Source: a phage
Strand: one strand, 5' to 3'
Sequence record: PZ049724.1
Length of the DNA: 1,379 nucleotides
This document shows, piece after piece, positions 1 to 1,379 of this stretch; the first letter of the stretch is position 1, and each line of letters starts with the position of its first letter. The position numbers and the translations under genes are program-made. The notes beneath the pieces were generated by a model, which was not told the DNA's origin, made no database searches, and worked only from the letters and a program-made list of their open reading frames with translations.

Positions 1-16
1 CGCGATGAGTTATGGT

Positions 17-31
17 GATTTCTGGTGTATG
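17..31. repeat. Candidate left terminal inverted repeat (IRL)
   Basis: Positions 21-31 (tctggtgtatg) are the exact reverse complement of 1365-1375 (catacaccaga). Extended over 17-31 versus 1365-1379, 12 of 15 positions match. A further gapped match (caggc at 36-40 versus 1355-1359) suggests the repeat may extend inward to about 25 bp. Confidence 0.45.
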
Positions 32-91
32 GAAGCAGGCTGAAGGGGTGGCGTATCCTGTTGGTTGATCACCGCGACGATCACAACCAAC

Positions 92-97
92 AGAGGA
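92..97 (+). promoter_or_regulatory. Shine-Dalgarno-like ribosome binding site (AGAGGA) for the transposase ORF
   Basis: Purine-rich AGAGGA sits 10 nt upstream of the ATG at 108-110. Confidence 0.5.
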
Positions 98-107
98 ATG
101 ATACGCC

Positions 108-821
108 ATGTCCAAGTCTAACCTGCATGCTCTTTCACAGCCAGAGATGACTAGCAATGACCCGCTGCACGAGCTGATTCGGCAAGGTGCGCGTGACCTG
201 ATTGCCCGGGCAGTTGAGACAGAGCTCGAAGGTCTCTTGAGCCAGTACGCTGACATCAAGACGGCCGATGGCCGGCAGGCGGTGGTACGCAATGGGTATC
301 TTCCCAAACGCACCATCCAGACCGGTGTTGGCGATGTGGAGGTTCAGGTGCCCAAGGTCCGGGATCGCAGTGGTGCCGGCATACGCTTCAATAGCCACCT
401 GCTACCGCCTTATCTGAAACGAGCGAGGAGTATGGATGAGCTGATCCCATGGCTGTACCTACGGGGTATCTCGTCGGGCGACTTCCAGGAGGCCCTCAGC
501 GCTCTGGTCGGCGAACAGGCCAAGGGCCTATCGGCCAACACGGTGTCCCGGCTCAAGGCGCAATGGCTTGATGAGCACAAGGATTGGCAGCGGCGGGATC
601 TGAGCCAGACGCGTTACGTCTATTGGTGGGCAGACGGCGTGTACAGCAATGTCCGCTTGGATGACCGGCTTTGCCTGCTGGTAATTATCGGCGTCACTGA
701 GCATGGCCATAAGGAGCTGGTAGCTGTTGAGGACGGCCACCGGGAGTCCGAAGCCAGTTGGCGAGAGCTGCTGACTGGGCTGAAGGAACGAGGCCTGGAG
801 CCTTCCCCAAACTTGCCGTAG
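108..821 (+). CDS. IS256-family transposase, N-terminal segment (237 aa), containing the first catalytic Asp (WWADGVY) and ending at a premature TAG
   Basis: ATG start with upstream SD. The translation has the family pattern as I recall it: an N-terminal helical region (ELIRQGARDLIARAVETELEGLL), RNGY...VP(K)(V)R motif, YVYWWADG first-Asp motif, and LLVIIGV...ELV. The frame ends at TAG 819-821, before the second Asp and the Glu. Confidence 0.8.
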   Translation: MSKSNLHALSQPEMTSNDPLHELIRQGARDLIARAVETELEGLLSQYADIKTADGRQAVVRNGYLPKRTIQTGVGDVEVQVPKVRDRSGAGIRFNSHLLPPYLKRARSMDELIPWLYLRGISSGDFQEALSALVGEQAKGLSANTVSRLKAQWLDEHKDWQRRDLSQTRYVYWWADGVYSNVRLDDRLCLLVIIGVTEHGHKELVAVEDGHRESEASWRELLTGLKERGLEPSPNLP

Positions 822-1360
822 GCGACGGCGCCCTTGGCTTCTGGAATGCCCTGAGCAAGGTGTTTCCTGATACCCGTCATCAACGGTGCTGGGTTCACAA
901 GACCGCCAATGTGCTGGACAAGCTGCCCAAGTCGGTGCAGCCAAAGGTGAAGTCAGCACTACACGAGATCTACCTGGCGGAGACCCGTGACAGCGCTCAC
1001 AAGGCGTTTAACAGCACCTTGAGCCGGTTCCGGGACAAGTACCCGAAGGCCATGGAGAACCTGGAGAAGGATCGCGACGAACTGCTGGCCTTCTATGATT
1101 TTCCGGCGATTCACTGGATTCACTTGCGGACCACCAACCCGATCGAATCCACCTTCGCCACCGTACGACTGAGGACCAAGCGGAGCCGGTCTTGCGGCTC
1201 CCGCGACACCACGTTATCGATGGTATTCAAACTGCTCCAATCCGCTCAGAAACGCTGGAAGCGAATAAAGGGATTCGATCAACTGAAGCTGGTCGTGGAC
1301 AATGTTCAGTTTCAAGATGGAATACAGGTGGATAATCAATCGGACAGGAACGCTGCCTGA
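758..1360 (+). CDS. IS256-family transposase, C-terminal segment in the -1 frame, containing the second catalytic Asp (LAVGDGALGF) and the catalytic Glu (TTNPIESTF, with R seven residues later)
   Basis: The ORF-track start at 758 is a TTG with no convincing RBS. The transposase-like sequence begins about codon 800-812 (PKLAVGDG...). There is no in-frame ATG or GTG before the second Asp, so this segment is probably expressed only as a fusion with 108..812, or not at all. Stop TGA is at 1358-1360. Confidence 0.75.
   Translation: MARAADWAEGTRPGAFPKLAVGDGALGFWNALSKVFPDTRHQRCWVHKTANVLDKLPKSVQPKVKSALHEIYLAETRDSAHKAFNSTLSRFRDKYPKAMENLEKDRDELLAFYDFPAIHWIHLRTTNPIESTFATVRLRTKRSRSCGSRDTTLSMVFKLLQSAQKRWKRIKGFDQLKLVVDNVQFQDGIQVDNQSDRNAA
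806..812 (+). other. Candidate -1 frameshift site: heptamer C_CCA_AAC (X_XXY_YYZ pattern) at the junction of the two transposase frames
   Basis: In frame 0 the codons are CCA (807-809) and AAC (810-812). A 1-nt backward slip re-pairs them to CCC and AAA. GGAG at 797-800 lies 5 nt upstream and the frame-0 stop TAG lies 7 nt downstream. Equally compatible with a 1-nt indel in the C4 run at 805-808. Confidence 0.35.
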
Positions 1361-1364
1361 TGGT

Positions 1365-1379
1365 CATACACCAGATTTG
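1365..1379. repeat. Candidate right terminal inverted repeat (IRR)
   Basis: Reverse complement of 1365-1379 is caaatctggtgtatg, matching 17-31 (gatttctggtgtatg) at 12 of 15 positions with an 11-bp exact core. The transposase stop codon (1358-1360) lies directly beside it, as is common for IS elements. Confidence 0.45.

Follow-up and report, generated by a model that had tools for sequence, protein, structure and literature searches.

Organization of the locus

The window, by which we mean the whole 1,379-nt stretch of DNA analyzed here, is filled by one insertion sequence (IS) with terminal inverted repeats, as the sequence-only reading had recognized, and is preceded by six nucleotides of flanking DNA (CGCGAT, 1–6) that lie outside the element and are too short to contain a 9-bp target duplication. 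The left inverted repeat (IRL, plus strand, 7–31) is 25 bp long, reads GAGTTATGGTGATTTCTGGTGTATG and carries a −10-like hexamer, TATGGT (11–16, plus strand), at its bp 5–10, 4 nt from the left end. It is followed by a leader with a stem-loop (50–107, plus strand) that encloses the Shine-Dalgarno sequence AGAGGA (92–97) and ends at the ATG, and by two large open reading frames on the same strand, both belonging to the transposase. The first (108–821) runs for 237 codons to a TAG stop at 819–821, matches positions 17–224 of the PF00872 profile (E = 3.9e-34) and encodes the DNA-binding region together with the first catalytic aspartate, D176 (codon 633–635). The second lies in the −1 frame (806–1360, with 758–1360 as the mechanically called ORF), matches positions 228–378 of the same profile (E = 5e-31) and contributes D240 (824–826), C261/H264 (887–889 and 896–898) and E347 (1145–1147) before its TGA stop at 1358–1360. 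Start and stop codon, at 108 and 1358–1360, are placed as originally described, and the transposase gene reaches nearly to the right repeat. The right inverted repeat (IRR) is represented in the window by its inner 15 bp (1365–1379, minus strand), the full repeat being GAGTTATTGTCAAATCTGGTGTATG on the minus strand, and the last three letters, TTG (1377–1379, plus strand), begin an outward-facing, perfect −35 hexamer TTGACA, the rest of which falls past the window end, 7 nt from the right end of the element. A simple scan of the window found neither a sigma-70-like promoter nor an intrinsic terminator inside it.

The frames at 108–821 and 758–1360 are one transposase gene split in two: with one C added, the gene encodes precisely the 417-aa protein WP_011805383.1, a sequence found on 691 contigs. 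As it stands in the window, the gene has its first catalytic aspartate in one frame and the other catalytic residues and the CxxH motif in the second, and since the break falls between the first and second catalytic aspartates, neither ORF product is expected to be active alone. The earlier description does not mention this interruption between 108 and 1360.

Identity and distribution of the element

Both large ORFs are recognized by PF00872, the Mutator/IS256 transposase profile, at 118.6 and 108.4 bits against a cut-off of 21, and the repaired protein scores 327.1 bits with NF033543 transpos_IS256 (NCBIfam; cut-off 150). The transposase of ISCth4, as represented by structure 6XG8, aligns to the repaired protein with E = 1.3e-35 (HMMER), which sets D175, D241, E348 and C262/H265 of the former against D176, D240, E347 and C261/H264 of the latter, and the element accordingly carries the DDE triad and the C/DxxH motif of the inserted alpha-helical domain that are expected of the IS256 family. 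Its intact copies, at 1,384 bp, lie within the family range of about 1.2–1.5 kb, and its imperfect terminal inverted repeats (25 bp, with 21 matches) within that of about 20–40 bp. The profile scores, the structural alignment and the shared residues bear out the IS256-family assignment of the sequence-only reading. A family trait that the window copy does not display is the single long transposase ORF, in place of which it has two ORFs in different frames; this split is a defect or an error of the window copy and not a property of the element.

Close copies of the element are found on plasmids. A megablast search against plasmids returned eight records that match the window at 99.7–99.9% identity, of which seven, mostly IncHI2, belong to Salmonella enterica and the eighth to Pseudomonas sp. 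JS3066. It also returned a plasmid copy from Marinobacter nauticus VT8 at 83%; the plasmid records annotate a single 1,254-nt CDS as "IS256 family transposase", WP_011805383.1. A 2025 letter on the resistance gene grdA (PMC12587605) describes an "ISMaq7-like" IS of the IS256 family, 1,384 bp long, with 25-bp IRL and IRR and 9-bp direct repeats, that shares 71.6% nucleotide identity with ISMaq7 of ISfinder. According to the same source, grdA-IS1394 is enclosed by two copies of the element in Salmonella, both on plasmids and on chromosomes, giving the unit IS256-grdA-IS1394-IS256. Compared with this grdA-associated element (CP082667.1, NZ_CP043223.1 and pZJ18, NZ_MT246861.1), the window proves to hold the same element by an ISfinder-style rule (at least 90% nucleotide and at least 95% amino acid identity), with 99.7–99.9% identity over the 1,373 nt from 7 to 1379 and the same ends; length, IRL, IRR, 9-bp duplication and repaired protein are all alike, and the window differs in having one C fewer at 805–808, a split ORF and no last 10 nt.

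We therefore consider it highly probable that the window contains a known IS256-family IS of 1,384 bp in a single, almost complete copy, with 10 nt missing at its right end, and hold with the same confidence that this element is the "ISMaq7-like" IS that brackets grdA-IS1394 in Salmonella enterica. The element as such is already known, its length, 25-bp repeats and 9-bp duplication having been published in 2025 (PMC12587605), and the copy carries little weight as a discovery; hundreds of contigs have its transposase annotated as IS256 family as a matter of routine.

Diverged forms of the element are, with little doubt, widespread in Marinobacter and other marine Gammaproteobacteria. When the 26-nt left end was used to scan contigs from one genome per species, 85 stretches were obtained, most of them in Marinobacter, Neptuniibacter, Alcanivorax, Halomonas and Aeromonas; among these stretches are about 20 distinct full-length copies with the same ends and 72–87% identity, 1,384 bp in length except for two of 1,383 bp. 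The marine copies (e.g. that of M. nauticus VT8 pMAQU02, NC_008739.1) share with the element the length of 1,384 bp, the 26-mer of IRL, a near-identical IRR, the single ORF of 417 aa, the 9-bp duplications and the leader hairpin; at 72–87% nucleotide identity, the usual ISfinder rule makes them separate isoforms or elements. Elsewhere the yield was small: the window had no match among E. coli genomes and phages, and in IMG/VR only one 86-nt end fragment matched. The insertion site of the window copy, with its flank CGCGAT, was not found among the other copies; CGCGAT stood upstream of the left end in 0 of the 85 stretches from the one-genome-per-species contigs, and the 25-mer across the left junction of the window had no match in the JGI metagenomes.

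An apparent single-base loss in the transposase gene

The frame is broken by the loss of a single base in the run CCCC at 805–808 (plus strand), which in all intact copies reads CCCCC (TCC CCC AAA, encoding S-P-K), and the description of the element as autonomous is unsupported for the window as it reads. This one C is also the sole internal difference between the window and the copies in CP082667.1 and NZ_CP043223.1 (L001 and L003 of our collection), and apart from the C5 run the whole element has no homopolymer of at least five.

We slightly favor an artefact, that is, a homopolymer contraction introduced in sequencing or assembly, over a truly dead copy. The exact 237-aa truncated product occurs on seven other contigs from six samples, and two of these seven CCCC copies sit on one long-read contig, ERZ1332097 tig00000380, which over 2.3 kb departs from a finished Stutzerimonas plasmid overwhelmingly by contracted homopolymers (C5 to C4 twice, G5 to G4, C6 to C4, A5 to A4 and G4 to G3). 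Contractions of this sort in an assembly would yield precisely the one difference observed in the window.

That the loss is instead a real mutation, and the window a defective, non-autonomous copy, is a serious contender to which we give somewhat less than even weight. The copies at multiple sites would then stem from mobilization in trans or from recurrent slippage on the C run, and it speaks for a real mutation that the 237-aa product stands next to at least six different flanks (the window's included) and that decay of copies is common, with about 5 of some 40 full-length relatives in genomes having disrupted ORFs. Five short Logan contigs with distinct insertion sites, from the five runs ERR3213904, ERR3213533, SRR32022549, SRR32022507 and SRR12390988, likewise carry CCCC, and the flanks of three of them (L093, L094 and L095) had no match in the plasmid collection. 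Against a mutation stand the position of the lesion in the only homopolymer of at least five, the systematic contraction of such runs in at least one of the carrier assemblies and the identity of the window with intact copies in every other base, as well as the distribution of the short form: it is present in none of the finished plasmids, and a CCCC-specific 28-mer had 0 matches in two other large collections, the JGI metagenomes and IMG/VR. The flanks on the Logan CCCC contigs, only about 530 nt, hold no run of at least five and are too little to judge compression.

The CCCC form could also be read as functional, with −1 frameshifting on C_CCA_AAC (806–812) as in IS3- and IS1-type elements and with the 237-aa product as a regulator, a reading that we regard as very improbable. 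The deletion does give rise to a correctly framed X_XXY_YYZ heptamer that precedes the stop of the first ORF by 6 nt, with the downstream frame at −1, and the form does occur at several sites. Yet a stimulatory structure is missing, the region 800–900 folding no better than its shuffles (z = −0.29) and the sole nearby hairpin having 5 bp and a 2-nt spacer, and the relatives are all single-frame, most with TCG CCC AAG, which leaves no conserved frameshift site; moreover, the artefact explanation covers the same data. The conserved heptamer, stimulatory structure and two-ORF relatives that mark IS3- and IS1-type frameshifting are therefore not found here, and with a heptamer that exists only through the deletion and no fold downstream of it we reject programmed −1 frameshifting as the main reading. 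It is correspondingly far-fetched that the CCCC form should be a spreading lineage in which one mutation turned the single-ORF transposase gene into a two-ORF gene read by −1 frameshifting on C_CCA_AAC, with IS3-like self-limiting regulation.

Returning to the two readings that carry weight, a contraction artefact and a real deletion, we note what the latter would entail. Should the Logan contigs stem from Illumina sequencing, the loss would be genuine and the defective form would have spread, and if the deletion is true, the copy is non-autonomous and could be moved only by transposase supplied in trans. A frame broken on the sole homopolymer of at least five should not be taken for biology until accurate reads have been checked.

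Terminal repeats and target duplications

The exact 11-bp inverted repeat from which the element was originally delimited is present as described, with TCTGGTGTATG at 21–31 and CATACACCAGA at 1365–1375. An exact inverted repeat of this length arises somewhere in 1,379 nt in 165 of 1,000 shuffled sequences; with both arms required to lie at most 40 nt from the ends, it arises in only 6 of 20,000, so that the core repeat is real and non-random. These 11 bp belong to a longer, imperfect terminal repeat of 25 bp with 21 of 25 positions matching, of which they are the conserved inner core and in which 7–16 (GAGTTATGGT) pairs at nine of ten positions with GAGTTATTGT (other strand) outside the window. 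The imperfect outward extension that had been proposed does not hold up: 17–20 (GATT) agrees with the reverse complement of 1376–1379 (CAAA) at one position in four, and the two tetramers constitute the mismatched middle of the true repeat. The proposed inward extension, CAGGC at 36–40 against GCCTG at 1355–1359 with a 1-nt offset, is there in the letters and stays at chance level; its right copy extends from the final transposase codon into the stop, and the left one is not conserved in two diverged relatives (L062 and L081).

The true ends emerge from a side-by-side comparison of copies in plasmids (L001–L004) and in other assemblies (L091–L097); as the window copy itself offers 6 nt of left flank and no right flank, its boundaries are inferred from these other copies. 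On the left, the element begins at window position 7 (GAGTTATGG...), directly before which the flanks diverge: the base preceding GAGTTAT varies from one independent copy to the next (G, A, T, A, G, G), and in the plasmid megablast the matches to other copies begin at query positions 3–7. On the right, the element ends with ...TTTG|ACAATAACTC, where the last 10 nt (plus strand), the outer part of IRR, are no longer in the window, and the right flanks diverge directly after AATAACTC / ...CAGATTTGACAATAACTC. Two contigs have a total length of exactly 1,384 bp. These boundaries, worked out independently from the comparison of copies, agree with the published ones, and both IRL and IRR are identical to the published repeats (PMC12587605).

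Target duplications lead to the same ends. At 15 insertions of the element and its relatives we find perfect 9-bp target duplications at exactly the outer boundaries, for example CTTTCTGAG, TCTGCATTT, TGCATCAAT, AGGTATTTG and CAACCGTGG, which upholds the duplication of 8–9 bp that had been anticipated from the family, at a length of 9 bp and at these other insertions, and not at the boundaries for which it had been anticipated. For the window copy we would predict from its letters that the sequence continues on the right with ACAATAACTC and then with NNNCGCGAT, a 9-bp duplication ending in CGCGAT.

The sequence-only reading, an autonomous IS occupying 17–1379, about 1.36 kb, behind a flank at 1–16, has the exact 11-bp repeat near both window ends in its favor and retains practically no credence, since independent copies are identical to one another through 7–16 and for 10 nt past 1379, the 9-bp duplications are compatible only with the outer boundaries, and both the one-in-four match of the outward extension and the interrupted ORF contradict it. 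Continued homology past its boundaries, by its own account what would refute it, is thus what the copies exhibit. Only 1–6 are flank, 7–16 being the outer part of IRL; the element runs for 1,384 bp from window position 7 to 10 nt past the window, and the leader, put at about 90 nt, measures 101 nt from the true left end.

Putative promoter halves, leader hairpin and a proposed model for transposition

Elements of the IS256 family transpose by a copy-out/paste-in route via a double-stranded circle in which the two ends are joined with a 5–7-bp spacer, and a −35 in the right repeat then combines with a −10 in the left repeat into a junction promoter that boosts transposase expression (PMC7780238). 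In keeping with this, repeats of the family have a conserved inner and a variable outer part (PMC7780238). The ends of our element appear to be built in the same manner: TTGACA of the right repeat, a 6-bp junction spacer and TATGGT of the left repeat add up to the optimal spacing of 17 nt, and from this arrangement and the family precedent we infer that TATGGT would be the downstream half of a circle-junction promoter. Such a placement of the promoter halves in the outer repeats would also explain the clustering of the mismatches between IRL and IRR at bp 8–14.

ISCth4 of Clostridium thermocellum (6XG8, 6XGW, 6XGX; PMC7780238) provides a described case of such a system, with an IS256-family DDE and CxxH transposase like that of the element, a distant relationship that is drawn from the HMMER alignment only. 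Its repeats, too, are conserved on the inner side and variable on the outer, where the −35 (right) and the −10 (left) of the junction promoter are located, and a spacer of 5–6 bp is needed (PMC7780238). It differs in length (1,503 bp), in its 31-bp repeats and in its 8-bp duplications, and its hexamers occupy bp 6–11 (right) and 8–13 (left), as against bp 8–13 and 5–10 in the element. IS256 itself, the family prototype from Staphylococcus and Enterococcus, has the NF033543 profile in common with the element and, as cited in PMC7780238, forms circles with 5–7-bp spacers and hybrid promoters from its outward −35; it differs in its Gram-positive host and in its end sequences, the likeness being one of profile and description only.

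The leader hairpin is the second feature that may bear on transposase expression. It has a folding energy of −28.5 kcal/mol (z = −6.48), with 0 of 200 shuffled sequences as stable, and 11 distinct relatives share its consensus structure, with nearly invariant stems and a variable loop; covariation is thin, with 2 of 22 pairs compensatory and both of these coming from two related sequences. A role as a terminator was ruled out, as there is no T tract. Translational brakes are known from other insertion sequences, and the hairpin, which lies over the Shine-Dalgarno sequence, would be such a brake on the transposase.

Taken together, we propose a model in which the element, which encodes a single 417-aa DDE transposase (D176, D240 and E347, with CxxH) and generates 9-bp duplications of its target, would move, as its family relatives do, by copy-out/paste-in through a circle. 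Joining of the ends with a 6-bp spacer would give a TTGACA-17-TATGGT promoter for expression of the transposase, as suggested by the hexamers and the ISCth4 precedent, and outside the circle the hairpin over the ribosome-binding site may hold expression low.

Conclusions

For the delineation of elements of this type, the main implication is that an exact repeat core near the ends of a stretch of DNA is not to be equated with the boundary of the element, as IS256-family repeats hold unlike promoter halves in their outer portions and for this reason differ there. The outward-facing half is also of interest beyond the element itself: in pZJ18, the outward −35 forms TTGACA-17-TAGCAT upstream of grdA, and this perfect −35 is relevant to the expression of neighboring resistance genes such as grdA.

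Results and Discussion

The transposase gene of the copy in the window is interrupted by the loss of a single C at positions 805-808, which splits it into two open reading frames, ORF1 at 108-821 and a second at 758-1360. The break falls between the codons for the catalytic residues D176 and D240, at the element's only homopolymer of 5 or more nucleotides, and the loss itself creates a C_CCA_AAC heptamer 6 nt upstream of the ORF1 stop codon. Two further copies of the element, L091 and L092, lie together on an 828-kb long-read contig (ENA ERZ1332097 tig00000380), where homopolymers of this same length class are systematically contracted relative to a finished Stutzerimonas plasmid, accounting for 9 of the 12 differences over the 2.3 kb compared. 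Frameshifted genes called on that contig, and likewise similar exact-protein matches, are suspect.

Upstream of the transposase, the leader folds into a very stable hairpin (window 50-107; -28.5 kcal/mol, z -6.5) that adjoins the ATG and holds the Shine-Dalgarno sequence within it. Relatives as distant as 72% identity retain the structure; its loop varies, and two of its base pairs have changed in a compensatory way. It probably serves as a translational brake on the transposase.

Exact matches to the 26-nt left end also occur at five loci (L023, L056, L032, L044 and L086) with no transposase similarity behind them and no right end found within 4 kb. Two of these, L023 and L056, are cyanobacterial (Leptolyngbya, Nodosilinea) and share the flank upstream as well as a leader-like stretch that has diverged, their sequences parting after the ATG. 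These loci may represent solo ends or remnants, or a different element with the same end.

Among the genome contigs L009-L085, dozens in a single assembly can end ~53 nt inside the element: more than 25 do so in the Neptuniibacter sp. MAG ME_XS_2108_bin53, and contigs of Marinobacter MAG59 and M. vinifirmus FB1 terminate likewise. Contig ends of this kind suggest that the element has expanded to a high copy number, breaking up these assemblies. On the Marinobacter metalliresistant chromosome (L038), the element is present as two complete copies with 87% and 84% identity to the window, oriented divergently on either side of a ~1.5-kb segment (2290-2315, minus strand, and 3811-3836, plus strand). 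Each carries its own 9-bp duplication; two neighbouring or nested insertion events, and not a composite transposon, may account for the pair.

An IS30-family insertion breaks the copy on the Pseudomonas sp. JS3066 plasmid (L004, NZ_CP143313.1, locus ~1570-2660) close to its 3' end, and the outer ends of this copy show no matching 9-bp duplication. Matching 9-bp duplications are likewise absent from the outer flanks of the pZJ18 copy (L002), as expected for one of two copies in direct repeat that have recombined or been mobilised together. At the right end of the element lies a perfect -35 hexamer, TTGACA, that faces outward (window 1377-1379 plus 3 nt beyond it); in pZJ18 it is followed at a 17-nt spacing by a flanking TAGCAT (L002 1675-1703), with the start of grdA ~40 nt downstream. 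This arrangement is a candidate hybrid promoter that may drive the gentamicin/plazomicin resistance gene grdA.
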